From the NCBI GenBank assembly GCA_040954595.2, contig CM082579.2:3337227-3401226 (forward strand): 64,000 nt of DNA, read 5' to 3'. The notes under the pieces were generated by a model. That model made no database searches, was not told the DNA's origin, and was given only the letters and a program-made list of their open reading frames with translations. Origin of the DNA: Balanoglossus misakiensis (Eukaryota > Animalia > Hemichordata). Positions within the stretch are counted from its first letter, which is position 1, and each line of letters begins with the position of its first letter. Positions 3,001-63,577 of the stretch are shown piece by piece. A program made the position numbers and the translations under genes.

Positions 3001-6000
3001 TAGCTCATGAAAATCATCCAAAAATGAGAATTTTTCGACTTTGCGGAATTTCAAAATTTGGCCGATTTTTGAAAAAAATCATGGGTTATAGCTCATGAAA
3101 ATCATCCAAAAATGAGAATTTTTCGACTTTGCGGAATTTCAAAATTTGGCCGATTTTTGAAAAAATCATGGGTTATAGCTCATGAAAATCATCCAAAAAT
3201 GAGAATTTTTCGACTTTGCGGAATTTCAAAATTTGGCCGATTTTTGAAAAAATCATGGGTTATAGCTCATGAAAATCATCCAAAAATGAGAATATTTCGA
3301 CTTTGCGGAATTTCAAAATTTGGCCGATTTTTGAAAAAATCATGGGTTATAGCTCATGAAAATCATCCAAAAATGAGAATTTTTCGACTTTGCGGAATTT
3401 CAAAATTTGGCCGATTTTTGAAAAAATCATGGGTTAAAGCTCATGAAAATCATCCAAAAATGAGAATTTTTCGACTTTGCGGAATTTCAAAATTTGGCCG
3501 ATTTTTGAAAAAATCATGGGTTATAGCTCATGAAAATCATCCAAAGATGAGAATTTTTCGACTTTGCGGAATTTCAAAATTTGGCCGATTTTTGAAAAAA
3601 TCATGGGTTATAGCTCATGAAAATCATCCAAAAATGAGAATTTTTCGACTTTGCGGAATTTCAAAATTTGGCCGATTTTTGAAAAAATCATGGGTTATAG
3701 CTCATGAAAATCATCCAAAAATGAGAATTTTTCGACTTTGCGGAATTTCAAAATTTGGCCGATTTTTGAAAAAAATCATGGGTTATAGCTCATGAAAATC
3801 ATCCAAAAATGAGAATTTTTCGACTTTGCGGAATTTCAAAATTTGGCCGATTTTTGAAAAAATCATGGGTTATAGCTCATGAAAATCATCCAAAAATGAG
3901 AATTTTTCGACTTTGCGGAATTTCAAAATTTGGCCGATTTTTGAAAAAATCATGGGTTATAGCTCATGAAAATCATCCAAAAATGAGAATTTTTCGACTT
4001 TGCGGAATTTCAAAATTTGGCCGATTTTTGAAAAAATCATGGGTTATTAGCTCATGAAAATCATCCAAAAATGAGAATTTTTCGACTTTGCGGAATTTCA
4101 AAATTTGGCCGATTTTTGAAAAAATCATGGGTTATAGCTCATGAAAATCATCCAAAAATGAGAATATTTCGACTTTGCGGAATTTCAAAATTTGGCCGAT
4201 TTTTGAAAAAATCATGGGTTATAGCTCATGAAAATCATCCAAAAATGAGAATTTTTCGACTTTGCGGAATTTCAAAATTTGGCCGATTTTTGAAAAAATC
4301 ATGGGTTAAAGCTCATGAAAATCATCCAAAAATGAGAATTTTTCGACTTTGCGGAATTTCAAAATTTGGCCGATTTTTGAAAAAATCATGGGTTATAGCT
4401 CATGAAAATCATCCAAAGATGAGAATTTTTCGACTTTGCGGAATTTCAAAATTTGGCCGATTTTTGAAAAAATCATGGGTTATAGCTCATGAAAATCATC
4501 CAAAAATGAGAATTTTTCGACTTTGCGGAATTTCAAAATTTGGCCGATTTTTGAAAAAATCATGGGTTATAGCTCATGAAAATCATCCAAAAATGAGAAT
4601 TTTTCGACTTTGCGGAATTTCAAAATTTGGCCGATTTTTGAAAAAAATCATGGGTTATAGCTCATGAAAATCATCCAAAAATGAGAATTTTTCGACTTTG
4701 CGGAATTTCAAAATTTGGCCGATTTTTGAAAAAATCATGGGTTATAGCTCATGAAAATCATCCAAAAATGAGAATTTTTCGACTTTGCGGAATTTCAAAA
4801 TTTGGCCGATTTTTGAAAAAATCATGGGTTATAGCTCATGAAAATCATCCAAAAATGAGAATTTTTCGACTTTGCGGAATTTCAAAATTTGGCCGATTTT
4901 TGAAAAAATCATGGGTTATAGCTCATGAAAATCATCCAAAAATGAGAATTTTTCGACTTTGCGGAATTTCAAAATTTGGCCGATTTTTGAAAAAATCATG
5001 GGTTATAGCTCATGAAAATCATCCAAAAATGAGAATATTTCGACTTTGCGGAATTTCAAAATTTGGCCGATTTTTGAAAAAATCATGGGTTATAGCTCAT
5101 GAAAATCATCCAAAAATGAGAATTTTTCGACTTTGCGGAATTTCAAAATTTGGCCGATTTTTGAAAAAATCATGGGTTATAGCTCATGAAAATCATCCAA
5201 AAATGAGAATTTTTCGACTTTGCGGAATTTCAAAATTTGGCCGATTTTTGAAAAAATCATGGGTTATAGCTCATGAAAATCATCCAAAAATGAGAATTTT
5301 TCGACTTTGCGGAATTTCAAAATTTGGCCGATTTTTGAAAAAATCATGGGTTATAGCTCATGAAAATCATCCAAAAATGAGAATTTTTCGACTTTGCGGA
5401 ATTTCAAAATTTGGCCGATTTTTGAAAAAATCATGGGTTATAGCTCATGAAAATCATCCAAAAATGAGAATTTTTCGACTTTGCGGAATTTCAAAATTTG
5501 GCCGATTTTTGAAAAAATCATGGGTTATAGCTCATGAAAATCATCCAAAAATGAGAATTTTTCGACTTTGCGGAATTTCAAAATTTGGCCGATTTTTGAA
5601 AAAATCATGGGTTATAGCTCATGAAAATCATCCAAAAATGAGAATTTTTCGACTTTGCGGAATTTCAAAATTTGGCCGATTTTTGAAAAAATCATGGGTT
5701 ATAGCTCATGAAAATCATCCAAAAATGAGAATTTTTCGACTTTGCGGAATTTCAAAATTTGGCCGATTTTTGAAAAAATCATGGGTTATAGCTCATGAAA
5801 ATCATCCAAAAATGAGAATTTTTCGACTTTGCGGAATTTCAAAATTTGGCCGATTTTTGAAAAAATCATGGGTTATAGCTCATGAAAATCATCCAAAAAT
5901 GAGAATTTTTCGACTTTGCGGAATTTCAAAATTTGGCCGATTTTTGAAAAAATCATGGGTTATAGCTCATGAAAATCATCCAAAAATGAGAATTTTTCGA

Positions 6001-18170: not shown

Positions 18171-19721
18171 CGTCACTCTTCTATTCAAGTGTGAAGCATA
18201 AACTAATATACTATGTATATATACGTGAGACGATTTGTGCGTTGCCTAGCAAATAGCCATATCCAGCGATTGGGCTTGACAATACTTGCTTGTTTTGTCG
18301 TAATCTGAAATGAAATCATTAAAACCAACATCTCGCAACTTACTGAATGTAGACGGATTTTTTCCAGGGATAGTTTGCAACGACCTCGATTATTAAAGGG
18401 CTTGATCACCATTCCATGATTGCCACCACAACCGTCTCCTCAAAGGATACAAATATAAAATCTCTGTTTCATTGGGTAAATGGGAAAATTGACGACGGAC
18501 ATAGGCTTGGACTTGTCAACATATGTGTCCATGTTCTACTATTGGCTGTAATCCTGTAATATCAATGCTTCTTCAGCAAATACGACCATCCCACGAACAT
18601 TGAATCATGTTACTGGTAATAGGTTGCAGGGCCAGTGGTGTCATTTCACGCAGGCGCACTGATGTATGAAACCCTAGACTTATGACGTAGATTTAATGGC
18701 GTTTTCTCAAAGATGTTTTCAGAGTACATGTATGAGGAAGAGAAGCGACTTCAAAATGAGCTCTCTCTTTTTTGTAAGCTTTATCATTGTACAGGCTTCT
18801 ATGTGTACGTATTATTCTCAAATCATATGAATCTTTCATCTGACTGCCATGATTTTATCATGTGAACAAAATCATTTACAAGAAAATTATTCCATCATCT
18901 GGCTGGAAAAAACACACACGCAAATACCATTTATTTGAAGTTTTGCTTTTTATTTGCAATCTTTTGACAGGTACTATTAACAGCATCAAGAAAGCAAAAC
19001 TGTACAAATACAGAACTCTTGTATTTTTTTGCATTTGGTTTCAAAATAATCCAGGAAAATACAACAAATACATTGCCGTATAACATAGCAATACTTTGCA
19101 AAGCTATGGAAAATAATGTATAGAGCCCAATATAAATAAAAAAGACTCGAATTTGAAAGACATGATCTACAGGCATTCATTACATGTATACATCTTTCTC
19201 TATACAGAACAAAAAATAACTTTGAATTTAAAGCAAATGATAGTAAAGCAAAGCTGGGAAAATTGAGAAAACAAAACACATAGAAAGCAAGAAATGGGCA
19301 TTTTTGGAAGATTGTTTTCAATTTTTTTTCAGGATGCAACAGAAGTCCAGTTTTTTAAATACGAATTTCGGGATAAGTTTGCCTTGTTTCAGTTTATCTT
19401 TGAGGTCACAGAATTCTTTGTTAAACCACAGACCTCTATAGTTTTTCTCACGGGTCTGTTGAAACTGATTGTCACAGAGAGCTAGTTTCCCCTATAACAG
19501 TACAGCGTTAAACCAAGAGTAAATAACAGCAACATAAACATGGATGAGTTCATGAGTACACAAAAGAAAATCCCAGAGACTGCAACAGGGATACACCTGG
19601 GCTCTGTAACACAGACAGCAATTCTATACATTTACAAGAAAGTTGCCACAAAAGTAGAGACTAAGAGAGGGGGGGGGGGGACAAAAGTTTTGGTCAGTGA
19701 CATGTAAATGGGGTCTGCGAT

Positions 19722-42725: not shown

Positions 42726-45700
42726 TTAAAATCCCGCAGGCCATCCACCTGGCTTTCTGAATTCGGGACTGACATGGAGACCTCCTCCCTCCTTGTGTAT
42801 GGCATTCACCACGGAGAAGACTGCTCTTTCAGGAATTTCTGTTAATTCGTGACCAATGTGTCTCAACCTCTTGGCGACGTCCTGAAAGACAATTACCCCA
42901 AGAAGTGTTAGAGAGGGGTCGACAGGTATCTCCTAATCACACCGTGGAATTGATGAACTACTACAATGTACTTCTCCATGTCGCCTGTTACAACGATTTG
43001 GAACTCATTAGCGTTACTCTGCGTTTATCACGGTTGCATAATTTCATGAAATATGCAATTACATACCACGACACTGTTTAATTGACTTAACAGTGCACTA
43101 GAGTGTCGGATGAATATCTGTAACAGCCTTGCACTGGGGCTATATTGGAGCTTTTTATGAAACTTACCTCATCAAATATGTGTTCATGAACAACTTCCTC
43201 GTCTGGGTCGTAACTTATCCTCGGTTGCATGACAGCTTGTCTGATGTCTCTACCAAACCAAAGAGTTTCCATAGCAACCTAAGTAAATCAAGAGAAATTA
43301 AATTGCTCTGTCTGTTTGTCTGAACCAAGATGTCTGGCACAAATACAATGTTGTAAACGCAGCGACCTGCACCAACTAAAGCGGTTTTAGTGAAAACTGG
43401 CAGGTGAGCGCCAGAAATTGAAACACTAAAGGCTCTCTCGTAGAACCACCGAACTATATGACAGAACCTACCACTGCATTGCTAGAGATTATCTTCAATC
43501 CTCCAGCTGATCCAACAACTAACTTTACATCCTCGTCCTCTTGGTCCAAAAAAATCGCGGGTGACATTGCCGAGAGTGGCCGCTCCCTTGGTTTGATGTC
43601 CACTGCCGTGCTTTCATCTGTCTTCTTGTACTTGAAAAAGTTTGTCATTACGTTGTTGAATAGTATTCCAGTTCGTGAGCCATGCACTGCGGACCCAAAG
43701 CTGAAATGTAACCATGGGTGCAAGCTTTTAGTCGCCATCAGGCTAAATTCAATGATGGACAGGATACTGCCTTATGGCATTGACTGTATACAATTTTTTT
43801 TTTGCCTCTAGTTCGGGCAATGCGCATAAGACACTTACTAGCTATTGATCGATGACGTCAACGCCACAGCGTTTCCGGATTGGTCGACAACCGACACGTG
43901 GGACGTGTCATTGGAGAAAGGGTAGGTGACGACGAAACCATAGTGGTCCTGTGTGTACGTGTGACCGTCGATGATTCTGCTGCGAATCGTGTCGGCGAAA
44001 TCGTCTGACGTCATGTTGTGCAGGGCCTATGCAAAAGTGGAGTGCGGTTGCAGAGAGATAGTTTATACTGTTTGTCATCTCATGCCCATTTAATCATGTA
44101 AATAGCAAGGTTGGTCGGTCATGAATTAAAACTCAAAGCGAGGCCAATGGGAAAGTTGACCAATCACATCAAGGGGTTTTCCCAATTGGCCTCGCTTTGA
44201 GTTCGAATTCATGATGGTTGCATGAGGGTGCTAGACTTAGGAAAATGGTGTATCAGGGTGCACAGTGTAGCCCGTTGCGGAAATGAAGCCCATCTCGTTA
44301 CCTCGTTTGCCCTTGTCACGTTACTGTCTCCGAGTTGATAGTGTTGCGCAAGTACATATTTGAATGCTTCTATCAGCCTATGGCTCCACAACAATTCCTC
44401 CTCCTGGCTTCTCGCGCCAAAATTTTCAATGCTGTAACCTAAAAAGAAGCATCGAATGATTGACAACAACTGAAATGGGCGGCAGTTTGTTGGTTTTCAG
44501 AAAGGAAAAAAATGTAAATTGGAGGAGACCGTACACCGTTAACTGAATAAGAATTAACTTTATTCAAAGCATGGTAATTTTTTTCTACAAATACAAGTAG
44601 CCAACGCCCACCTTTCATGATGTTCATGAGCATCACCAATGCAGGACCACCTGACGGTGCGGGCGGGGTGAACATATTCACACCCCTTATTTCACTTTTC
44701 AGCGGTCTGTTCAGCTTTGCCCGATACTGTTTGAGATCGTCCAACGTGACAATGCCACCTGTAGGATTGAAAGAGACTTAGATCCAAACTGAATATGCTC
44801 ACGTGGTTGGGCGGTTACATGTCATTGTAATGTGCGCAAACAGTACTAGCGCAAATTAGTTACCCCACGGAATTCTACAACTGAAACCCCTCCATCGTTT
44901 GGATGCAAGCTTTTGTCAATGGATATTAAATGTGGGATAGAAACGCGCACGAAATCAGATCAAGTGGTACTATGAACAGTGCATATTCGCCCGTGTTGAA
45001 TGCAGAAACGCGTACCTTCATCTTGAATATCAGCGACTATATCTTTTGCAAGATGTCCTTGATAGAATTCGTTTGGGCCATCCTGGGCAATCCTCTGTAA
45101 TGTTTGGGCATACTTTGCTCTCTGCATGAAGTCTCCAGACTGATATAATTTACCCGACGGCAAAGTGAGTAATTCTCTAAAACAAATTTACAATTATCTC
45201 GTGAGAATCTTAAAACAGAAAGTCCGAAATTTAACATCTTTGTATGCCAAATTAATTTTGAAGCAATTTTATCAAATAGAATTTCCCTTTACCTCAGCGA
45301 TGGATAGTCTGCAACCGTTTGCGCCACCGTTAAAATAGCATTTGAGAGGGCTGAACCAACTGTAATTCCTTCCCACGCCAGTTGGATTGCGGGCTGGAAC
45401 AATTCCTTCCACGGCAGCTTGCCGTGGCGCTGGTGCGCCCGCCAGAAGCCGCTGATTTCGCCCGGCACGCCGACACAGAGACCGGCCTGGGAGGGTTCAC
45501 ACCTGCCCTGCTCCATCTTGCCGGAAATTTTTCCGGTGATCTTGAGAGTAATTCCGGAGATGTCCCCGGGCGCTTCGGGGCGGGCGTCGATCGCCTCCAC
45601 CACTCCCTTCTCCTTGTTGTATATCACCATGAAGTGCCCGCCACCAATGCCGGCGCTGTGGGTGTTCACCACCCCCGTGCAAAGCATGGCAGCAATGGCG

Positions 45701-46608
45701 GCGTCTACTGCATTGCCACCTCGTCGGAGAATCGAACTGTGGTTCAGGACAAACAAACACGAGAGTATTTAACAGTTGAAACTTCTGATGCACGGGTGAG
45801 ACCAGATCCCTGCAGGTCGTGTGCCAATTTAAAGTTCCTGACTTACTTAACTGCTGTTCAGGATGAAGTGAAACTGGTCTTTTATCATCGTTGTAGAAAA
45901 TTCAAAGCCACTAATGCACATGAAATACTAGTTAAGTCCGGACCCTCACCGACCCCTATTAAATTTGTTATCAATACGAGTCTGAGATCGTTTTCTCACG
46001 GTACACGGAGATCACGTCGGCCCGGGCGGGAGAGCCGTGGCTTGAGCAATGCCGTTTTCATTAAATAAAGGTGCACCAGTCATACAGACTCCGGTTTTTC
46101 ATCTTGCCTTTTTTTTGCTTCTACATCATCACATCCATCTAGACGTTTTCCAGCCACCCCTTCCCGAAGGGCTAGGGCCCGGGTTCCGATAATTGAAACG
46201 GCCTGATAAGTTTTCTTCATTTTACGGTAACTGGGCCGACACTCCGGCATTGCCGAGCAAAAGACCAACAAATGCGACCACTGTTTTGGTTGATAGGGTT
46301 TTACTAGCTGCAATGATTGTTACGGGTGCTGCTAACTTGACTGTTGTGTTCGCAACGGTTACACACCAGTCAACCTAGCACCACCCACTTCAATCATTGC
46401 AGCTAGGGGCTTACCTGCCAATGACAGAGCAATTTTTGTGGTCCGCAGCGACAGCAGCCAGTTTGAAGAACAGTCCGTTTGTAGTGAACGGCGAGTTCGC
46501 GCGCTCAACTGAGGAGCGAGCCCTGGCCATAAAGTCGAAGTTGGCAAATTGCAGTCCAGTGATAATGGCACATATTGCAACGAACGAAGAAAGGAACATG
46601 GGATACAT
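42726..46608 (-). CDS. Gamma-glutamyltransferase/glutathione hydrolase family proenzyme (divergent), ~9 exons
   Basis: N-terminal hydrophobic segment, then AAVAADHKNCSVIG|SSILRRGGNAVDAAIAAMLCTGVVNTHSAGIGGGHFM, VGVPGE...HGKLPWKELFQPAI, PPAPSGG, HRLIEAFK, nucleophile segment TSHVSVVDQSGNAVALTSSINSY|FGS, RPLSAM, VGSAGG and C-terminal RKPGGWPAGF* (TAA at 42726). Exons ~46415-46608, 45293-45736, 45017-45176, 44612-44758, 44302-44437, 43839-44027, 43471-43700, 43168-43278, 42726-42881. The start may extend further upstream. Confidence 0.88.
44119..44214. repeat. Intronic inverted repeat (~36-bp arms), MITE-like hairpin
   Basis: TCATGAATTAAAACTCAAAGCGAGGCCAATGGGAAA pairs with TTTCCCAATTGGCCTCGCTTTGAGTTCGAATTCATGA; no clear TSD. 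Confidence 0.8.
46304..46406. repeat. Intronic ~103-bp imperfect palindrome, MITE-like
   Basis: Perfect 16-bp outer arms CTAGCTGCAATGATTG / CAATCATTGCAGCTAG, with further internal pairing (GGGTG.TGCTA..TTGACTG / CAGTCAA..TAGCA.CACCC). Confidence 0.8.
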
Positions 46609-49167: not shown

Positions 49168-52100
49168 CTACCTGATAAGAAAACTGGGAGAAGAAAACAC
49201 AAAGCGATAAGTTTGCAGTTCAGTGGGTTTGCGCCATCTTTATACACATACCAAATTGGAGTTAATAATAAGATCTCTTTCATGCCTGAAAATTCTGAAG
49301 AATACTGTACAATTGGCAATTAATTTGATAATTATCCATTAAACGGTGAATGGTTGGTGTGCATCACCTTTATACATATACCAAATGGGGGGAAAAAATA
49401 AGACCTCCTTCATGTCTGAACACTTTAAAATTACTGTACACAGCATGAGTGTGTGAAACAATCACAGACATGTTCTGAATCCAAACAAAACAATTAATCT
49501 TTTTTGCAATTTTATCAGCTGCTGCTGGACTTACCTGTATGGGTACCCATGGTATTTAGATCTGAACACAGACAACAAGATACTGAAGAAGACCACTACG
49601 GTGGCTAAACCTAAAATAGTTACAACTGCAATTGCACAAAGAGAGAAAAGAAAAAAAAAGTTAAAATATAAAGCAATCAAAATTGACAAGCGAAGTTTTT
49701 ATATTCACTTCTACTTTTATGTTCAGATTTTATTTCCATGGGTGATTAAAGAGGCATAGACAGTGAATATTCAAGAGAGGCTCATAAAATCACTGTGGTC
49801 TGCATTCTGGAAATGACCACAAAGTTAAAGTTTGCTGCATGAAGAAAAAGGAAAGATGTGAAGATCTGACTTACTTCTGCGTTTGCCTACATCACCTTTT
49901 TGGGTGGCACTCTCGTTCAGCAGCACAATACCAAAGGTTATTGCGGCATCTGTGAGGGATCTGGTTAAGGTCAAAGAACTATCTAGAGCATCGGGCAAGG
50001 CTCACTACGCTAACACGATGCTACAGCACAGGCCTTTACAATTCTGTGACAAAAAAAAACCCCAGCTGGACACCAATCCCACAATGATCATTGTTATTGT
50101 TGACAATTGCATTATAGTCCGGACTTGAAGACAACTTTCAAACAACAACAAATGTTGACTGTGCACACATGGGTTAATTTATGTTGAGGAGATTTAGACT
50201 ACGCATTTGACCCTGCCTCAGTGTGCTGAGCAAGAAACCATGCTTGATGCAAAGAACAAAAATACCAAGAAAATAGCCAAAAATACAGATAGTACGTGGA
50301 CCTTTAATGTCAATTTCATCTACAAGTCGATGTTTTGTTGGATTTTCGCACTTCATAAAATTAGTTTACGGAAGTAGGTAAGACCTAAAATTAATCCAAT
50401 TAGTTTAAAATAACATGCGCATTCATATTAATGTCTACTAACAATAAAATAATCAATAATACATAGCAGTGATGAAAAAACAGGAGCTGACATGCAAAAC
50501 ACAATGGAGAGAAAGAAAATATGCAAGTAGGGCAAGGGCAATGCTCATCATGGTGACATGTCTCGGGCAAGCAACACCTATTTTTGGAACATATGAAAAG
50601 TAAACCATGCCGATGGTGACCAGGTACTAGAGAAAAAATAAAGTGTTCCCAACAGATGGTGACCCGTCACCTGAATTACAGATGATGCTGGATGAAAAGG
50701 TGAGCTTTGAGGAGAACAAGTCACCCCTGTGTAATGATAGCACAAGGGTAAAATGAAGGACTGTGGTAGAAGGGGGCCCCAAAGCTGGGTGGTTAGTGGA
50801 GCACCGGAACTGGACATGGGCAAATGCTAAACCCACTGTAATGGAGACAATGGCTCTAGGACAGTCACCCCCTGGGCATTTTACCCACAAGACACTTTAA
50901 CCAATTTCCCCAACCTGTAGGTGGGAAATTTCTGGCGAGCAGGTGTCCAGGGGGTGACTGACCCGATACCCAGAAATGGTGATCAAAACGTGTGACACAA
51001 AAAATGTAAATAAAGGATACAGAGCAACATAACTATGTGTGTCTCACCAATGAACTGGGCTTGACTGCTGCCATGTATGTAATTCTGTGTGACACCCGTG
51101 AGAAGGGAAACAGAAAGAAATCAACAAACCACGGAAAAGCAAGATTCCTATTGGGTGAGACGAGGTTGGATTATGTTCAGACAATGCATGCTGACTTTAC
51201 ATGCATCTGGCAAGCATGGACCCAAAATACATCCACATGTGACCCTTCTCAGGTAAGTCGATGTTGCCAATGTGTGAACCAGCGCCCTCTATAGTCCAGT
51301 GTTACTTTTTTTACACAGGGAATAAAGGGTAGACTCAGGCAACTTGTTACTACCTGGGAGGGTCAGATATGCATGAAATTTCCAAATGGTATCTTTTTAT
51401 CTGTGAAGTGTGCAAAGGTGAATAGAAATCATAAAGGATACTCAGTAGAAGGACAATATGAGTCTCGGCAACAAATTGACCATTTCTACTGCCTTGAATG
51501 TAACTCTACAAACCAAAACAAGAACTGCATTAACATTCATCCATGGTGGTGTACTTGTGATGTGAGCATTCCATTTGACGTGTGTGTGTGGGCTGTGTGT
51601 ACAGTGCAAATGTTTACAGGGTGTGTCTCCTGCTATGATCAGTTTGATGTGGCATGCGAGTGGTAACTTTCTACTGAGGTACATGAAATTCCATTTTTTT
51701 GAATCCGTGAACAAGCTTTGGCAACATGTTTTGCAGAACAATAAACCTTACCATCTGTCCTGTCTGTGGGTTTTTATGTGCGTATGGTGGGCCTCTGATA
51801 TGATTCCACATCTGCCCCGAGGTCATGGCAAATACAATACACTGACAAATAAAAAAAGCAAATACAGAGAAAATGAATTTTTACAGAAATGTTATGTGTG
51901 TATATCCAGAGATAAACAACACTAGTCTTTCCTGTATACTTGATCAGATATCAAATATTGATGGCTAACCAGAATGTCACTTTCAATTGTTCATGTTCAT
52001 ATTCATGTTTTTCTATCTGGCTTGTGAAATCAGTGAAGTAATTTTATTCAGTTGCAAATTTCCTACGTTCATTTCCTATCACAGCTATTATTCACATCAC

Positions 52101-52616
52101 GGGTCCCTTACAACCTGCGTGTGTAGTGCCCAATGACTGTCTCCCATTTTTGGACATGGTGACTGCCGAATACAGGATGAAACAAAGAAGATTATTTCTT
52201 ACCAGTGCTCCGACACCCCACATTGTCTTGTTGTACAAGAATTCCAGGTTGTTGCGTCGAAGGTAGAGAAGACCACAGATAAGGGAGAACAACAACCCCA
52301 GTGCAATGGTGCCAGAATAGTTTGGTGGTCGGAACACACGGATCTGAAATCAATATTTACAACATCCTAATGTAGTACTAGTAAAACTGCTAGATAATGT
52401 ATGCTTCCTAATTGTGCCAGGTTAGCAGATACTAGCATACGTGTCTTCATTACAATCATGCATGGCAAGGTTTTATTTATCTGTCAGGTCAGACCTATCA
52501 AAGATCCATCACTAACCTACTGATGGCATTCTTTGAAAACAAAGTTCACTACTCACCACTATGTCTGTCCTTTCTCCAACCCACTTGGCTATTGACTCAG
52601 AAGCATATCCAAGCCT

Positions 52617-52651
<35 letters not shown>

Positions 52652-54485
52652 AACACTTCCTGTATCAATGACATGTGATACAATGTGGTCTTGTGTGTAT
52701 CATAAGCTAAACCTAATTCGTAAGTTTCTGGTCCATGCTTATTCCATGCTTATTGCTTTTCCATTAGACCTGTTTGAAGGGACAGACAGGGTTGACAGGA
52801 GGATCTTACCTCTGGATGTCATAGGTATCTCCTTTCTTGGGTTTCCCCTTGGGTGGAAAGTGCAGCAGAGCTGGGGCTGAGTGCATCTTCAGCTAAGACG
52901 AAAAAGATGATCAATTCATTAGTACATGTATATGATTTTTGGTAAAAAAAGTACATGTCTAACATCTTACACATACAAAATTATGCAAAATCAACAAATT
53001 TCCATTGTTTATTATATTGGTACAAGTCCAGCAAATAGAAATTACTTCGTTGAATATATTCAGAACCAGTGAAAAGTGAAGATTGACACTAATCACAATA
53101 GACAATACATGGACTGATCAAGAGCAGGAGAGAATATCAAGTGATGCAAAATACTTACAGAAGAAAAGATATCATGGGCATCATCATAATCCACACTGGC
53201 AAAGAACAACTTGTTACTGTAGGACTGGGAATATCTCCAAGAATTTGCTAGTATCTGAAACTCATCATTTACTTGTCTGTGACAAGAAAAACAGAAGAGA
53301 CAAAGATTCACAGTTTAAGGTTACCCAACCATATGCTTTATGACTTGTCAAAGTTGCCACACTCCATCTATTTGCTTGACTTAAAGAACCCAGGTATCTG
53401 ATTGGCCAGCACAATATCCCAATACGTGATTGGCTAGCATAACGAACCATATCTGATTGGCTAGAACAACGAACCACGGATATTTTGATCTTACCTGCAT
53501 ACTGTACACTGTCTCTGTGGTTGAAGAGCTGTGAACATCACAAGCATGGAGTAGTTGCGTGGTGTGGCTTTCACATACTGGCGAAATTTGTCTCCATTTA
53601 GGCGTATCACAGACCGCTTTGTGTTCCAGTCCATGAGCTGTTTCACACGGTCACCAAGTACTTGCTGTAATGAATAGTGGTGATTCATGAGTGCGATTGA
53701 TGTCAGAACTTCAGGTGAAAGTGTGTTCTGCTTAGATGATGACAAGATATGGCATCACCGGTCAGATTGGGTGATGCTGTAGCTCTGTGTGGCATGGCTT
53801 TGTGTTTTAGCCGGCTGTGCCACCAACTGAACCTTTGTTGACTACAATACTATACTACTAGCTACTATGCCATTTTATTTGTGGTGCTACAAAGCTTGCA
53901 CAAGTACACACTACTACTTCAAGTTCAAGGTTTTTTATTTCATTTTTTCCTTCAAAATAACCCCCACTCCCATACAACATTTGTTTTGTGATCTGAACCA
54001 TTCTTTTCTTTGAACCCTTTCACCTCTGCGAATGCAGAAGTCAAATTTACCACAGAGCTCTGGAAAACAATGGATTTGGGATCAAACCATGGCAATGAGA
54101 GGGTTAAGCTAATTGAGGATTACTAAATTACTATGCTCCTTCGTCACATTCAATTTCGGAATCTACCAGTCTTCGATAAATCAACAATATACGTGACAGT
54201 GGATGCTATGCATATACATTACTAGTTATGGTATCATCAATGATGCGTGTGGTGGCGAAATCCTACTGGCTGCTTCCTCCAGGATCACAGCCAATATGAT
54301 TTGCTGCACCGAAAACTACCGAAAGCTTAAAAATATTGCAAGTTACACTGATACCAAGTTAGCACATTAAATACGCTTACCTCCTTTTTCTTTGCATCAA
54401 CAACGGGTGTATTGGTGGCTATGAAATTAATAAATACGAATAAAATCAGCACAATCCACTTTCGCACACCTCCCGGTTCCGCCAT
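49168..54485 (-). CDS. TUSC3: Oligosaccharyltransferase oxidoreductase subunit MAGT1/TUSC3 (OST3/OST6 family)
   Basis: Signal peptide, then [38 protein letters not shown] (CxxC), [12 protein letters not shown]...[60 protein letters not shown] and [10 protein letters not shown]|SFLIR*. Exons ~54381-54485, 53495-53664, 53159-53276, 52811-52892, 52558-52615, 52203-52343, 51752-51841, [51442-51505 or 51021-51084], 49875-49949, 49535-49625, 49168-49183. Likely co-orthologous to both MAGT1 and TUSC3. Confidence 0.95.
49964..49970 (-). other. U12-type (minor spliceosome) branch point CCTTAAC
   Basis: The minus strand reads CTTTGACCTTAACCAGATCCCTCACAG|ATGCC. The branch site lies 12 nt upstream of the acceptor AG (49951-49950), with no long polypyrimidine tract. 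Confidence 0.88.
51021..51084 (-). CDS. MAGT1/TUSC3 alternative exon B (64 nt; [21 protein letters not shown]) with U12-type donor
   Basis: Polypyrimidine tract + ACAG acceptor; exon followed by GTATCCTTTATT (51020 downwards); phase 0 in, phase 1 out. Confidence 0.92.
51442..51505 (-). CDS. MAGT1/TUSC3 alternative exon A (64 nt; [21 protein letters not shown]) with U12-type donor
   Basis: TTCTTGTTTTGGTTTGTAG acceptor; exon followed by GTATCCTTTATG (51441 downwards). Same length and phases as exon B, 13/21 aa identical. Confidence 0.88.
52621..52648. repeat. (GA)n microsatellite forming the (TC)n pyrimidine tract of a MAGT1/TUSC3 acceptor
   Basis: Dinucleotide run adjacent to the acceptor at ~52616. 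Confidence 0.9.
54011..54107 (-). mobile_element. piggyBac-like MITE copy 4 (diverged) in MAGT1/TUSC3 intron 1
   Basis: TGAA-CCCTTTCACC...GAAAACAATGGATTTGGGATCAAACCATGG..TGAGAGGG-TTAA. Confidence 0.72.
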
Positions 54486-54700: not shown

Positions 54701-57112
54701 CACTTTTCACACTACTAAGTACGATTAATTAGTAGATCTATACCTAACCCGTTTCATCAGTTGGGCTTCATCCGTTTCCATGGTTATAATTCGACGCTAC
54801 CCTCGTCCAAGACTATAGTCCCCGTCCTATCGAGCTACTGTATAGTGACTAGTGTATAGTACTTGAATATGTAAGGAATTTCCTATGATCGTGATGTTTA
54901 CATTCGCTGATTTTGCCGTTCTCCACAGAACTATCACTGTTCTTTAGTCCAGCGCCAATATTCTAGAGCGATTGTGATGACTTAGGAAAACTTCATAACC
55001 TGAAAACGAGGTTGTGCCCAATGAGAGGCTCAGAAGATTTTCGGCCAGAGCGAGAACGTCCGAGGTTTTCACTTTCTGACCATCGAGTAACGAGTGTACA
55101 GACCCGATCGTTGTTCACAAATGGATCCATCCAACTTTAAAAGGCCCAGTTTGGTCAATTCTTCCAGTTGGCCCCCGTCAAAGCACAACCCAATAAATTT
55201 ACGGTTGACTTTTTAGAAATACTAACGATCATATATCATTTCAAAGAAATATTGTACAGGGGTTATTCATAAACATTCAGTAAAGATTTACTGGTGGAAG
55301 CAATATTGGATGATTATTCCAGTTTATTGTACAAGCTCATCATTTTCAATCGATTTTAATTTAAAAACATTACATCTCCACAAATGTACTCACAATGAAT
55401 AATATAAATGCAAACATGCCAATTCAGATATCTCGATTCCATTTCTTCTTATTTTAATAGATTCTTTTGAATAATAAAACAACTGAAATCAACCATAAAG
55501 TGAAATGTACATCATTCGCTGGTTACATTGTTTCAGTTTTGTAGTAACTGTTATTAAAGTTAAAGTGAAAACGGGGAGACAGTTTGGATGTAGTGTGGCG
55601 AGTTGTGTGTTACACTAATTGTCTAGTGGTTCCATTTGAAACATTGTGCCACAAAAGGGAGTAGGCCATTTTGCAAATGCAAATAAAGTTCCTTTGTTGG
55701 TAGGCACAGTGAGGAATAGCTGTCTGTCTGGGTGTGTTTGGAATCTTGCTGTGTAGGTCATTTAGCTGATAGGAAACGGAAGCAACCCAAACGATTTAAG
55801 TTCAGGTCGTGAAGACACTTAATCTGGTGTTTGGTGGAATTGCTACATGTGTGTTATAAGTAGTGATACAAAAGATAGTTGTCTGGCAGTAGCCAAAATA
55901 AGTCTTGTTTTCTGAGGTAATACCTTTTGTTGAAGTGCTAAGCTCAGTCTGATGACTTGTATAGCGTACATGAGACTTGTCTCTTCACACCCTGTACTTC
56001 AGTGTGTAGTTTCTGAGCACTTACAAACATATCTAAAAAAATATGATGGAAATTCATAGTTGGACTAAACATTATAAGTAATTGAAAATATAAAATCCAT
56101 ATTTGGAAAGAAAAGCAAGTGCCATAAAGGATGTTGTTATTTCTAACTATCCTCAAGAACAAGGATTATTCATTCCTGTTAGCATATTGAAAGCAAAATC
56201 AGATTTATAGATTTGTAGAGATAGAGGTCAGAGAAATGTAAAGTTAAATCTCCAGAAATAGCTCTGCCAGCTTACATTGTAGATAGTGTTGCTTCCAGAC
56301 TGTCGCCACAAATCACTGCTGACTGACTCCAGACTGCATTAAGGATGACTAGTGGATGATTGTCTCCGCTGCATGAAAAAGCGACAAGACACTGTTAAAC
56401 TAATGCACTTCAAGTTTAACATGGTTTCTCAGTCAGATACACACATATATATGTTACAAGACCCCTTAAATTCTCCAAAGGAGACCAGCTGACCCTTGAT
56501 CTAGCATTTTATGTTGCATGATATTTATTTAAAGTGTTTTATGGATTGTGGATTGAACAGACATATTCCCATCTATATCATTAATCTTTATCAATGCAAA
56601 ATTTGACATGAGGGAAATATGGTTTAATATCATTCATACCTCAGGGGGAGAAAAAATACATGTAGCATCATATGCAAATGACATGTAATTTTTCAGGCTT
56701 TGATTAATCGTCAAAGCAGGTATTGATTTTTCATCACCTGACTTCACTGTAAAGTGTCTCCTTGAATGCGTTCTGTGTACCAGGTACTGTCTGCAGAAGG
56801 AGAGATAAAATCAGACCCAGTTTTATGGTTTTGAGTTACAGTCATCAGGGTGAAGTGTCAGGGATATAGCAAAATAGCTGAAGGCATGTGTGGACTTTGA
56901 TAAAAATATAAAAAAAAACTGTCTGTGTTTCTGGGCATCAGTTTCTGAAAATATGGGTAATTTGCTTGTTTTCCTCAAATGTGTACAACATACTGTACAG
57001 GCTTGAATGATCCACTGGAAATATTGGATTGGCTAGATCTAACATTGCCATGGTAACTCAACTGTGAATAAATTTTCATAGGTGACCATGATGTACCTTT
57101 CGTTCTTGCAGA

Positions 57113-60100
57113 ATGGGTGGTAAGGGCGGAGCCAGTGGGAGCAGCTACACTCCAGTTGCACCGAATCATAGTGAGACAGCCGTGATCTACAAAATTGGTA
57201 TCTATGGCTGGAGGAAGAGGTGCCTGTATCTGCTGGTGCTCATTCTGATGGTGACAGTGATTGTGAACCTGGCCTTGACAATATGGATCCTCAAAGTCAT
57301 GGACTTCTCCATTGTAAGTAGTGGTGGATTGAAATTTGGGACAGGAATGGATGTGTGTGTCATAAAAAACATGCATATCTCATGTTCTGAAAGCTATTGT
57401 ATGAAAAATTAATAAATTCTGGATTGACTATTGGTCATGTGCTCTCTATTGAAGTTTCATTTTGTCTTCTCTTTTCGATCCTTTGTTGTGCCATCTCTGT
57501 AGCTATGACACAGATGAGCTGTTTGAAGCAACTGGGTCAAGAGCCTGAACAATTATTTGCCATTATTTTGAACCGGGTCAATAAAGTCATGCCCCTTGGA
57601 CATAACATGGCTGGCTTATACATGTATGAGGTGATCAATCATAATAGAGAATGCCTAACCTAGTTTTGGTAGAGGCAATCCACAGTACTAGAAATCACCC
57701 ACAATTCTCTTTGGTTTGTACTTTTGAAAGTTGCCTTCAGTTTCGGTTGAATGGTCCAAGGAACGTGAATGTTAATGACACGAACCGAGAAAATGAGAAA
57801 CGCCTTGATGGCTTTGACCTCTTGGCAGCAAGGATATCAAATCCTCTTGTCAACATTGACTTGCATGGTTTAAAGTGAACCCCAAGGTCATATGTTAGTC
57901 ATATGGGTATCAAAACTGGAGTCTTATCACTGCGGCGCTATAATTTGATTACACACATATGTGACCCGCAGGCAATATTTAGTGGACATGTATTTAGCAG
58001 TAGACATGGCTGAAGTCTGGCTGACTGTGTGTTTGCATTGAATGATGTGTGGACAAAGCATTCACCAGATGTATGCAATTAACGTGCATATTACAGATGT
58101 CGACCATGCATATTAATAATAGATCATAATTGGACTTTGTATCAGATTATGTCAGTGTTTATTTCATCATGAATGTGGTGGTCATTATCTACACTGCAAG
58201 CGTGTGAAAGTAAACAGTTTACAGTCAATTTTGCTAAGTATATAATTTGCGTCTAATGATACATTAAAATGTAAAATGACAATGTTTGGAATTGGTGGCC
58301 CTGAATTCCAGTTGAATATTGTTGTGAAACTTATCTTATTTCTGATGTCATCTTTTTGATTACAGGATGGTATGGGTCAGCTGAGAGTAACAAAGAAGGG
58401 ACTACGGCTGGAAGGCCAAAGCGAATTTCTCAGGCCACTTTATGCAGCGGAAATTATTTCGAGAAGAGTGAGTATTTTGTTGACAAAAACTCGAAACTGT
58501 AAAAAAAAATACTGCTACTTTCCCTTTTAATTAAACTACCTACAGAGGCCTCTGGTTCTGCACGACTGGGGGTTGTTCTTATCTCAATATAAAACGCAGA
58601 GTGCAAACTGAACGATCTGCATACCATCCCTGGCACATCTGTCAGCGTCTCGACCATTTCACTGTCTTTACACTGAAAAAAGAAATTGGCTGTTTGAAGC
58701 TAGTCAAGGTTCACAGGGTTCGTCTGCTGTGAACATAAGAAGGAGAGTAATGAATCCCTGTGCCCTAGAGATCTTGCTATTACTTTGCTTAAATTGTCCT
58801 GCCATGGTTCAAATAGAATTCTGTTTCCATCAGTGTAGACTTCAGAGCTGTATACTGCCAGCTTGGATCTGAGGCTTCGTGGTGACATTCTGTAATCTAG
58901 TCAGGTGTCCTCGGGTTCAGTGCACCTGAATTAACTGCTTAGTCGCACGCATTGGATTTTGAAATTATAAGGTTCGTGCCGGAGAATTAGGAGTGGTTGC
59001 ATCCCCTGAAAGTCAGTCACGCATTGATATTCAAATGATTGGGGTAAAGAGAGAATTATTGTGGAAGGTAATCAGCCCTGCCCCGGCTATAATGATGCAT
59101 CCAAACATTTGAAGACGATCATCGGTGATTGACTCAAAAGGGGGATGCCACTACGCTGAATTTCCCCATGGGCGGTTTTGACCTTCTAGTTTTGAAAATC
59201 AAACGGTTCGCCAGTTTGCCGAGTAAATTCTGAGGCTTGTTTGAGGACCTGAAGAGACTCTTGGAGACTAATCGTATTGGAGATCTACATCACAAATCTC
59301 GGCTGATATTTAAAGATTTTTTTTGTTCGTCTGTGAGAGAAGATCTCCCGGGGGACAGATGTATTATCAGCCATCTTTCACACCAAATCTCCAGCATTTG
59401 AAATAAAATATTTGCGACGGTGCAAATGCCCACAGTAATGACACACAAAGAAACACTTGCAATTAGGGTGAGAGTTTGTTCGTACAGAGAATGTCTTCTT
59501 CTTCAGGCACAAACCTTATTATACTGTCAAGCTGAAAGTTTATTGACCTCTGCGTGTTACTCTTGGAGTGATATCCTATTACTTATTGCCACAATTATAG
59601 GTGTATTGATCATTTTGTGTGAATAGTTCGCCGCCGCAAGGCTGTGCAAACTGATCAAGCAGTCACCTCGTCTGCCCGTTATGTGTGGTATTCCTTGCGA
59701 TTGCCCAATTATTCCTCGGGAACATGTTTGCAGTTTTTAGCTGGAGATGCATCACTTGTTCTTGTGGGATGACCCCTAATGGATCTTGCGATCAGAGGCT
59801 GCTTGCTTGTTAGGCGCGCTGAAAGCAACGGAGACCTGTATGTCACGCATACTGCCATGCCCGATTTTAGAGGGCACCTGTAATCACGTCATAGATTTGC
59901 ATCAAGTGTGGAAAGAATTTTTAGCAGTTATGCCTTTATATTAATAATTCACAAGCGTATTGAGTACTGTAGATTTCATCCTGATGACAAGAAATGACAA
60001 ACCTGCCAATTCTGCTCAAAATGTGCATTATCAAAATTTGGATATTTGTTTGCTTTAAAAGTAGTCAAACCAGTTGTTAATTTCAACGAGAGTGTTTGGG

Positions 60101-63100
60101 TCCTGGCATTGAGTGACAGACAAAGCAAAGCCGAACGGCAGAATTTAATAAAAAGTTGCCATTGCGAATTTCTATGTCATTTAACACCTGAAAGGTTACC
60201 TGGAAATTGGTTTGTCAGATAATGAAATATTCACAAACAGTTCCTGGTGGCGTATCCAACAGCTTTATACAGTTTGTCAGTCCTGTTGATGAACAGTGTT
60301 TCATACGGCCAGGGAAATCAAAAAGTAAATTAATTATTGAATGAACAGATTCTGAGTATAGTAATTTATCATAGGTATATACATGTCATCCGCTCCCAGA
60401 AAGTAATAGTTTTTTTTTGGTGCAATTAATTAAAATTAATCCAGTACAAATTGATTTGAAGAGAAGCATTTATAACATCTGTATGAATGCCATCAAATTG
60501 TAATTAGACGATCACACAGTTCTTGTTAGATTCATTAGTCTGATTTGTACATGCTATGTTTAATAAGCAAATTCGCTCAAATCTTCTGAGTTGCACTGAA
60601 TACCTGTGAAGGCCTGGTTATATATATGCTTCTTAGGCATGCGTGTTTGGCCTCAAGGGTTTTGTCCACAAAGGACATGGCCATAACTCATCAGCATGCT
60701 GCGTATTTCATTTTAATTTTGCATTCTGGTGTGAAACTGTCGGTTTTGGAAATCGCTCGAAGCATGATAGTGATGGATAGCAGCTTCTAACATGCACATT
60801 CGAACAATATTGGCTATTGAGTTCACACCATGTCTGAATGGAACAGTCCTCACAGCCAGGAAAGATGTCGGCAGCCATTTGCTAGTTAGAGAAACTTCAC
60901 ACAGAAATGATTTAAGCCTGGAATTAATTTCTCACAAAGTTCTCACATTTCATATACCAGTACACACCCTGCCCATCTCGTATTCCAACCTTGTGGTTAT
61001 TTTGGTGGTAATTTTAAAACAAAATCTGTACGCCATGTGTTCATTCAGTTATTATTCCCAGATCATCGTACTTCTGGAGATTTTTCTCATTTGAAATTAC
61101 TCATTGCCCTGGTATGTGTGGGCCCGACCCCATAAATCCTTGGTCCTGCCATATATGCCGTTGTTTTATCAGTTGGCTCTGGAATAGAAATTTTCCAGAA
61201 CCTGACCAGCCACCCACCCACCCACCCACTCTCTGCACAAGGCTACCCATGCATAAACATTTAAAATTGCAAAGAGCCAGACTGACTCTGTTAGAAAGAC
61301 ATAAATGAGATAAGTTTTAAAAGAGAGGAGATTGCAATGCTTTCCACAAGATAGAGCTAGCTTGCATGTGGGTCATTTCTGAACCATAAAGTGTTGCAGG
61401 CATATTTCCTGGCTTCGCAAAGGCTAATGAGTTGGGACCATGATTAATGGATAGCCATTATAAAATCACTTGTATCATTTTAGAAAGTGTCTGTGCTTTC
61501 AAGGTACATGTGATTAGGCCTGCTAATGTTGAAATAAAGGCAGATTGAAATGTCACAGGTTTAAAGCTACGGTGGGTACTTTTATAGATGGTACAGCACG
61601 ATTGCTTTGTACGGAGAGCAATCAAGAACATCAAATAATGTCTGTGTAAAAGCCCACAGCAAATAATTCACTGTTGTCAGGCTGTGTAATAACACACCAT
61701 CCAGTTGTTTTATTGTGTTGATTTTGGTTAGCACACACTATCAATTAATAATGGCGACAGAAATATTACAAATCAAGAAGCATGTTTAAGCGATTGCCCG
61801 AAGCTCGAAGCATTTGGCTGTGTGAGTAAGTCTAAGAAGACAAATCTGGTTATGTACGTGTGTGTGATTTTATCTATCAAAAGAATATTGTCATTCAATT
61901 TAATTACAGTGTACTAGCTGTGAAAACTACACTCATAGCTATTGGGAGTTTTCAAGATATTAAGTTGTACGTAGAATGTCATTCAAATTTATTGCCTGTA
62001 TGTATTGCTGTTTTATGGCATATAAAAATGACGATATTGGAAAATGTAAGTGTAGGTTTGAAATTTCATGCGTTCTCCTTTACTTGTTATGGCGCATCAG
62101 ACAGACACCATATTGCGGCTTTTAATGCGGTAGCTTGATACGTTGTTTGAAGTCGAGAATAAAAAGTGAGTTACAGCCTGTCTTGCTGTCTTGCAGGATC
62201 AGCCATTAGTGCTGGAATCGGCTCGGAATATAACCCTTAATTTACGCAATACAGAAGGTAATGTGACAGGAAGACTGCTCGTAGGTAAGTGGGCACCGCA
62301 TGACATTTCCACAGAGGCTGGCTAATGATGTAATGCTGCTTCTTATTTCAGGCATTAAGATCTTTCTCGTGTGGTATTGGCACTCATTATTGTTACATTT
62401 TTGTCTACATTATATCACACAACACATTACATTGCAGACTGGACTAGTTGAGTAATAAAATCTGCTGATCCATAGATCTCATTTCACGTCTGGTTTCTCT
62501 TCTGCAGGATCCAGAGATCTTGTGTCGCATCACAAGGAGTTTCTGGTGGAGACGCCCGAGGGTAAAGTGCTACTTCGTGCCAATGATGACGAAGTGGTCA
62601 TTGGAGCAGACCGGTTTAGAATCACAGGTATGTTTGCTTTTATCTTTGTTTCTTCCATGTTGGATCATGATTTCACCACTGAGTTCTGTGTGATAACATT
62701 CAACAGTTGTATAGTGTAGGCTACAAAATAATCCCCTATCATATGATACTTCATCATAGGTGCTGAAGGTGCTGTTTTTGAAGGTTCGATACAAACCCCA
62801 CATATCAGAGCAGAAGCAAGAGAAGAACTCAAGTGAGTGGTTGCTCTTTTGTCTGAGTGAATTCTCCATGGTAACCCAGTGGTATAGATAATTCCTGATC
62901 ATTGGTCAAAATATCTCCACAACTTGACATGTGACCATACTCCGCCACTTAAATTAATTGGACTGCTTGTGCCCACATTGCAGTGGTCCAGCCTTCTTTC
63001 CACTGTGACTTTAAGGAAGTTTTCAACCTTTGTGTTTCCACAGACTGGAATCCACCACAAGATCACTGTACATGCAGGCCCCACAGGGCATACTTCTAGA

Positions 63101-63348
63101 TGCTGAGGGTGGCGACTTCACTGCCAAGTGTAGGACAGATCTCAGGCTAGAATCAAAAGAGGGGTCGGTACGTATCACCAATGAGCTTTCTTGGGTCTTC
63201 CGGTGTCACTAGTGAAACTGATGCTCACAACTAAACAGGATGAATTAATCAGAGAACAAACCTAATCTAGTAATAATCCGATCTGCATCTGAATCTCAAC
63301 ATCAAATTAATGATGACAGCCACTGACTGTAATGTTGGCCTACTGACG

Positions 63349-63394
<46 letters not shown>

Positions 63395-63577
63395 CCTCTC
63401 AAATAACAGATCATGCTTGACACCAAGAACGTGGAATTCAAGAACCTGCAGATGAGCGAGTCAGGACAGGCCACATACACAGATGTCTACGAACTCTGTA
63501 CATGTGCCAGTGGGAAGCTCTTTATAGCCGATGCCATGTCTGGTTGCAAAGCTTCACCTGGCCTGTGTCCTGACTAA
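57113..63577 (+). CDS. Delta/gamma/zeta-type sarcoglycan, 7 coding exons, ~291 aa
   Basis: [12 protein letters not shown] + TM helix + [15 protein letters not shown]|[66 protein letters not shown] and C-terminal [13 protein letters not shown]...C...C. Exons 57113-57313, 58366-58467, 62197-62284, 62508-62627, 62760-62832, 63044-63167, 63410-63577 join in frame (876 nt). Confidence 0.93.
63351..63390. repeat. (TC)n microsatellite at the last sarcoglycan acceptor
   Basis: Perfect dinucleotide run ending ~20 nt before the AG at 63408-63409. Confidence 0.92.

Follow-up and report, generated by a model that had tools for sequence, protein, structure and literature searches.

The OST3/OST6 (MAGT1/TUSC3) gene of the acorn worm Balanoglossus misakiensis contains tandem copies of exon 8, each with a major-type acceptor and a U12 donor, and it is likely that these copies are mutually exclusive, because the intron between them is a U12-5′/U2-3′ hybrid that would not be removed. 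Judged by its sequence, the exon pair is real, old and conserved, and it is a further case of the known JNK-type layout. That layout had been proposed in an initial annotation of the window, the term used here for the whole stretch of 64 000 nucleotides that was analysed, and both the exon homology and the splice-site classes were upheld.

Organization of the gene

The gene lies on the minus strand of the window, from position 54485 to about 49170. Its exons match TUSC3/MAGT1, and the PF04756 domain was detected in the two isoforms of the nearest relative (E 3e-100 and 1e-101), which are 95% identical to the isoforms of the window; the gene had thus been identified correctly as MAGT1/TUSC3. 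Exon 1 (54381..54485, U2 donor GTAAGC) encodes the signal peptide, and exon 2 (53495..53664) encodes the thioredoxin-like domain, with CTVC as its CxxC motif and a match to TUSC3 4M8G at E 6e-25. Exons 3–6 (53276–53159, 52892–52810, 52614–52557 and 52343–52203, together covering 52203..53276) have introns that are all U2-type GT-AG. Exon 7 (51752..51841, 90 nt) ends with the residues TGQM in phase 0, and its U2 donor, GTAAGG, would serve A or B. These are the alternative exons 8A (51442..51505) and 8B (51021..51084), each of 64 nt, encoding 21 residues and provided with a U2-type acceptor. The U12 donor after A, GTATCCTTTAT (51431..51441), is repeated exactly after B (51010..51020). The intron between A and B (51085..51441, 357 nt) is U12 at its 5′ end and U2-type at its 3′ end, where no U12 branch point is present. 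The U12 branch point core CCTTAAC (49964..49970) is located 12 nt from the AG of exon 9 (49875..49949, 75 nt), which starts at 49949 in phase 1 with a shared U12-type acceptor. Exon 10 (49535..49625), the exon after next following 8A/8B, starts at 49625, and the last coding exon extends from 49183 to the stop (49168). The positions originally given for A, B, the exon 7 donor, the exon 9 acceptor and CCTTAAC were all correct base for base, as was the claim of one and the same U12-type donor after both copies.

The donors of the other eight introns of the gene are GTAAG or GTGAG, and no second copy of any other exon of this gene was found. On both strands of the window the 11-mer GTATCCTTTAT occurs exactly twice, after A and after B. 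The 9-mer GTATCCTTT has three copies in the window as compared to 0.44 expected, a number reached in 2 of 100 shuffles. Its third copy (18442–18450, minus strand) is not preceded by an AG-bounded copy of exon 8 and is unlinked to the TUSC3-like gene.

A sarcoglycan gene (PF04790, about 57092–63577, plus strand) is arranged head-to-head with the TUSC3-like gene. We take human SGCZ and TUSC3 to be neighbours on 8p22, in which case the sarcoglycan/TUSC3-like pair would represent conserved microsynteny; our literature search found no paper on SGCZ–TUSC3 microsynteny. Downstream of the TUSC3-like gene there is a gamma-glutamyltranspeptidase gene (PF01019, about 44300–45760, minus strand). At positions 1–6000 of the window neither the GC content (0.31) nor the skew changes along the 6 kb, a pattern suggestive of a tandem satellite array.

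Sequence and splice sites of exons 8A and 8B

The two exons are identical at 13 of 21 residues and at 40 of 64 nt. Different codons are used at 10 of the 13 shared residues, and the divergence (pS about 1.0, pN 0.19) agrees with the earlier suggestion of an old duplication under purifying selection. Both exons encode the same segment, from phase 0 to phase 1, and both are preceded by AG. The acceptors had been described as pyrimidine-rich, which is true of B (36 pyrimidines in the 50 nt upstream), whereas the tract of A is only moderate (27/50). When scored against TCCTTRAC, the best branch-point match was 3/8 before A and before B and 7/8 before exon 9, in line with the claim that CCTTAAC stands only before exon 9; among the 11 acceptors of the gene, that of exon 9 was the only one to reach at least 6/8.

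With A or B singly, the product has 336 aa and is 95% identical to its RefSeq counterpart in the nearest relative. The computed products of the other two joinings have premature stops, as the frameshift predicted initially implies: inclusion of both exons gives 289 aa with the stop 189 nt before the last junction, and skipping of both gives 258 aa with the stop 154 nt before it.

Proposed splicing mechanism

A tandem duplication would have copied exon 8 together with both flanking splice sites. By the JNK precedent, exon 7 would be spliced to either A or B by the major spliceosome, and the minor one would connect the donor of whichever exon is chosen with the only U12 branch point, upstream of exon 9. 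In JNK2 minigenes a U12-5′/U2-3′ intron was not removed and each message contained a single exon (PMC1874599). Leak products with A+B or with neither exon would be frameshifted, and since their stops lie far upstream of the last junction, nonsense-mediated decay (NMD) would likely remove them as a second lock. By analogy with other genes, the spliceosome lock need not be absolute: some annotated hybrid introns do get spliced (PMC11347168), and the skipping of exons flanking minor introns was present in controls and increased when the minor spliceosome was inhibited (PMC8034651).

We consider it unlikely that NMD of A+B and skipped messages is the main cause of the apparent exclusivity and the spliceosome mismatch is secondary. 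The exon, at 64 nt, does not consist of whole codons, and the stops of both leak products are placed as described above; in a human survey 377 clusters (60%) were not divisible by three, as compared to five with U2/U12 mismatch (PMC5740500), and the major spliceosome is able to skip exons beside minor introns (PMC8034651). However, each of the six extra copies of exon 8 detected in other animals (see below) has retained a U12-like donor and lacks a U12 branch point at the acceptor, which is what the lock predicts, and the single exon per message obtained from JNK2 minigenes (PMC1874599) also speaks against a primary role of NMD. The two are compatible and could operate jointly.

It is scarcely credible that competing RNA structures (docker/selector) or steric crowding, and not the type of spliceosome, determine the exclusivity. 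Short inverted repeats were observed over the B donor (18 nt, 72%) and over the B pyrimidine tract (14 nt, 86%), but the folding of the region was no better than that of shuffles (z −0.24; 9 of 20 shuffles equal or better). No docker with two selectors was prominent among the 23 inverted pairs of this one species, and docker–selector pairing of the Dscam/ATE1 type was not found in this region. The 357-nt intron between A and B is also well over the 50-nt steric limit of PMC5740500.

Exons A and B in other acorn worms

Ten acorn-worm protein models reach the exon 8 region, the RefSeq isoforms among them being computed models and not reads; five were A-type, four were B-type, none contained both exons, and one, an old Saccoglossus model, ran into unrelated sequence. 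The A-type isoforms (P0023, P0019, P0018, P0001 and P0024) comprise XP_070554227, XP_070554229, XP_077984962, Saccoglossus XP_077863916 and P0024, a protein from a sequencing-run contig. The B-type isoforms (P0002, P0022, P0020 and P0021) comprise XP_070554228, XP_070554230, XP_077984963 and the partial XP_077870547, which from its accession series probably belongs to Saccoglossus. The proteins most similar to those of the window came from Saccoglossus and from the genome of XP_070554227–30, presumably Ptychodera flava, and the animal of the window stands close to Ptychodera among the acorn worms. The isoforms of the window are 94.9% and 95.2% identical to the matching isoforms of the nearest relative and 84–86% identical to those of Saccoglossus. 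In the nearest relative there is, in addition, a second version of the C-terminus, found with A as well as with B (P0019 and P0022 versus P0023 and P0002).

The A-type exons form a single clade (99/89, starred), so the duplication is older than the split between Saccoglossus and the lineage of the window. Because the models of relatives use A and B one at a time, A is not a dead pseudo-exon, and the initial worry that it might be unconserved turned out contrary to what was found. It is very improbable that A is rarely used or decaying in this species, with B effectively constitutive. Such decay would fit with B being nearer to human MAGT1 (residues 255–274 were matched by B with E 1.4e-6 and by A with E 1.5e-3), with the Q of A at the conserved position 4 (H in 61 of 66 distinct segments), and with the weaker pyrimidine tract of A. 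On the other hand, exon A is identical at 20 of 21 residues to the A exon of the nearest relative and at 19 of 21 to that of Saccoglossus, its splice sites and frame are intact, and A is the version in half of the acorn-worm models, one of them from the sequencing-run contig.

Age of the U12 intron

Human MAGT1/TUSC3 (PDB 6S7T chain H, 4M8G) are orthologous to the gene of the window, share PF04756 and have a matching U12 donor after the same exon. Both are listed as minor-intron genes (PMC7507305), with TGAGTATCCTTT as the minor 5′ site of TUSC3 and TTAGTATCCTTT as that of MAGT1 (PMC6717393 supplement). The TUSC3 donor TGAGTATCCTTT, with listed scores of 88 in human and 91 in mouse, is identical to the exon A site from −3 to +9, where the first three bases are the last three of the exon. 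In seven protein models (Saccoglossus, Branchiostoma, Sepia, three oyster models and Elysia) the exon closes with S/R-I-L, the donor read-through.

A pattern scan of metagenome contigs for the exon followed by GTATCCT gave 86 loci, 57 of them distinct. Since the pattern demanded the donor, the scan is uninformative on how often the intron is U12, and the locus counts are not independent events because the loci were chosen by GTATCCT and many are close kin; the acceptors are still an independent test. The threshold of 6/8 to TCCTTRAC was reached or exceeded at 34 of 36 exon-9 acceptors (21 at 7/8 or better), at 2 of 50 exon-8 acceptors and at none of the six extra-copy acceptors, so that the orthologous introns of relatives, to which the initial annotation had pointed as a check, are U12-like as well. 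The distribution of these predicted signals shows that exon 8 lay ancestrally between a U2 intron and an old U12 intron. In arthropod-like loci (L002, L003, L033, L050 and related ones) the U2 intron before exon 8 has been lost and the U12 intron after it kept; the layout allowing a locked duplication is therefore gone there.

The same exon duplicated or replaced in other animals

Four metagenomic animal contigs contained extra 64-nt copies of the exon, each with its own AG and a U12-like donor: one copy in L004 and in L076, and two in L057 and in L067, the last of which has no flanks. Degenerate forms occur among these donors (GTATCTT, GTATCCA, GCATCTT). Exons 7 to 9 were all covered in 31 distinct loci, 28 of them with one copy, two with two copies and one with three. 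In a tree constructed without exon 8, L004, L057 and L076 were placed among lophotrochozoans (100/99, starred), outside the mollusc clade (99/98, starred). L057 also carries exon 7 (90 nt, U2 sites) in two diverged tandem copies, about 1037–795 nt upstream of the first exon-8 donor, which sit ahead of its three exon-8 copies.

Replacement of the exon-8 segment was detected at the protein level only in annotated isoforms of Octopus (XP_029643993, XP_014768238), Pecten (XP_033742350) and Mytilus (XP_076118153, XP_063415546), and likewise from proteins in Sepia, where CAE1157581 and CAE1157579 differ in this segment and the alternative occurs also in two sequencing-run proteins. One Sepia (cuttlefish) model, P0041, has both versions, by way of a 4-residue read-through of the first donor and not by an exact splice. 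No replacement was seen in 16 echinoderm or 11 amphioxus cluster members (one amphioxus member lacks the region), in 15 of 20 coral and 15 of 20 oyster members listed, in gastropod members, or in the vertebrate representatives among the best 120 of 1010 matches, missing annotation being weak evidence in each of these groups. The claim of an independent case in an oligosaccharyltransferase (OST) subunit was thus upheld but proved too narrow, as molluscs and other lophotrochozoans have two or three versions of the exon. In the echinoderm-type cluster, isoforms P0094, P0185 and P0186 (XP_072040444-6) diverge where exon 10 (TM4) begins, suggesting that a further exon of this gene has been duplicated.

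One worm-like lineage has two single-copy genes, one with a canonical exon 8 and one with an exon resembling the first alternative copy of L057/L076 (BLOSUM 77 and 75, as compared with 56 for the canonical exon). Both gene types were found under seven contig-name prefixes. This arrangement is similar to the separation of splice isoforms after gene duplication described by Abascal et al. 2015 (PMC4494069), whose cases are vertebrate and do not mention TUSC3; the direction of change in the worm-like lineage is presumed. A fast-evolving second OST3/OST6 gene (L043, L075, other loci and protein P0270) has CHFC in place of the usual middle residues of CxxC. It carries an alternative-type exon 8, and its branch points fit the U12 consensus less well.

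One origin or two

Separate duplications in acorn worms and in lophotrochozoans are favoured by the exon comparisons. A single early-bilaterian cassette, lost in chordates, echinoderms and many protostomes, would be a rather improbable answer to this question of origin. A clade of acorn-worm A and the lophotrochozoan alternatives was not rejected by the AU test (p=0.37, 21 columns), and at position 9 G is found in A, in echinoderms and in most protostomes, while A is found in B, in most chordates and in cnidarians. However, the number of residues out of 21 that exon A has in common with others is 17.4 for echinoderm exons, 13.9 for B and 7.8 for the lophotrochozoan alternatives. When the tree was left free, A fell within the deuterostome exons, and the alternatives clustered together (89/76, long branches) within the protostome exons. 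Exon A also keeps H at position 16 and lacks the loop proline of the lophotrochozoan alternatives, and the exon order differs: the divergent copy comes first in the acorn worm and the canonical copy comes first in L004, L057, L067 and L076. Because it is built on 21 columns, with stars on 2 of its 39 inner branches and a bootstrap that had not settled, the exon-8 tree does no more than suggest the separate origins that we favour.

The protein segment encoded by exon 8

Exon 8 encodes residues 256–276. In the structure model of the window protein these residues form a strand, then a loop, and then the first part of helix three of the four long C-terminal helices; the model is weak over the loop (pLDDT 41–53 over residues 231–270, pTM 0.42). 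A fold search with this model confirmed TUSC3/MAGT1 and gave nothing further. The exon probably codes for a lumenal loop and the beginning of TM3, and by orthology the protein would assemble into an STT3B-type OST complex. The two isoforms would then differ in the TM2–TM3 lumenal loop and the start of TM3, which may result in STT3B-type OST forms with different turnover or site preference. The conserved changes of exon A (SQA to R-S/N-G) fall within the lumenal loop, which makes a role of the exon 8 loop in OST tuning plausible.

In yeast, Ost3p and Ost6p touch Stt3p through TM2–4, and these helices determine the roughly threefold difference in their turnover (bioRxiv 10.1101/2021.05.17.443621; PMC7226087). 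DC2 was inactivated by deleting parts of its lumenal loop, in a paper that doubts the kinship of DC2 and MagT1 (PMC5674889), and an STT3–OST3 pocket has been proposed as a holder of the substrate peptide (PMC9701220). A suspected likeness of ‘RNGQ’ in exon A to the DC2/OSTC lumenal loop was rejected: exon A alone had no OSTC match at E up to 10, and the family profile matches OSTC weakly (E 0.0014).

Discussion

The layout observed here has the same parts as exons 6a/6b of vertebrate JNK (MAPK8/9/10), i.e. two homologous exons, two U2 acceptors, two U12 donors and one downstream U12 acceptor (Chang et al. 2007, PMC1874599). The origin proposed there, duplication of an exon between U2 and U12 introns, is parallel to that of exon 8 of OST3/OST6. 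The present gene differs from JNK in that it encodes an OST subunit and not a kinase and is from an invertebrate, in that relatives have up to three copies, and in having an extra frameshift safeguard, because 64 nt is not divisible by three. Exons 11/11a of TMEM87A/TMEM87B show the same interlock in a membrane-protein gene, with zero reads joining 11 and 11a, but these are 72-nt, frame-neutral exons of a vertebrate and unrelated family (Olthof et al. 2019, PMC6717393; Akinyi and Frilander, PMC8329584). JNK and TMEM87A/B are the U2/U12-locked cases described in these sources (PMC3584512, PMC8329584, PMC6717393); in PMC10853781 the phrase is used in a different sense. Together with the five human clusters with U2/U12 mismatch (PMC5740500), they make the dual-spliceosome logic, correctly attributed to JNK in the initial annotation, less rare than stated there.

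As to precedence, that annotation knew of no description, and we found none of alternative exons in MAGT1/TUSC3/OST3 in the literature searched, a scope that excluded most subscription journals, bioRxiv supplements and the gene names of the five human clusters. TUSC3 and MAGT1 are absent from the searched main texts of PMC5740500, PMC6717393, PMC10853781, PMC11347168 and PMC8329584. What is new here are the tandem copies with the same wiring in four contigs, the alternative isoforms of molluscs and the split into two genes in one lineage.

Vertebrates have one copy of exon 8 per gene, as seen in the proteins among the best 120 of 1010 matches, and two paralogous genes instead of two exons. In yeast, Ost3p and Ost6p are two interchangeable forms of the subunit, like the A and B isoforms (Neuhaus et al., bioRxiv 10.1101/2021.05.17.443621), and they differ in the loop corresponding to exon 8. 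They are, however, separate and highly diverged genes, and the yeast work names the TM3–TM4 loop as the main structural difference and does not isolate the exon-8 loop.

An exon between a U2 and a U12 intron may be easy to duplicate, since its copy is exclusive from birth. We put forward tentatively, as a possibility with somewhat less than even chances, that the exon before an ancient U12 intron became a spliceosome-locked switch at least two times independently, once in acorn worms and once in lophotrochozoans, where there are as many as three copies and, in one lineage, a split into two genes. Splicing would thereby yield alternative OST complexes, for which yeast (Ost3/Ost6) and vertebrates (MAGT1/TUSC3) have two genes, and the rate of glycosylation or the choice of sites would be tuned by one lumenal loop under the control of the minor spliceosome. 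With the present gene, the short published list of U2/U12-locked exon pairs, otherwise vertebrate, gains a core glycosylation gene. MAGT1 and TUSC3 are human disease genes, and the repeated duplication of the same 21 residues would single out their loop as a tuning site of OST.
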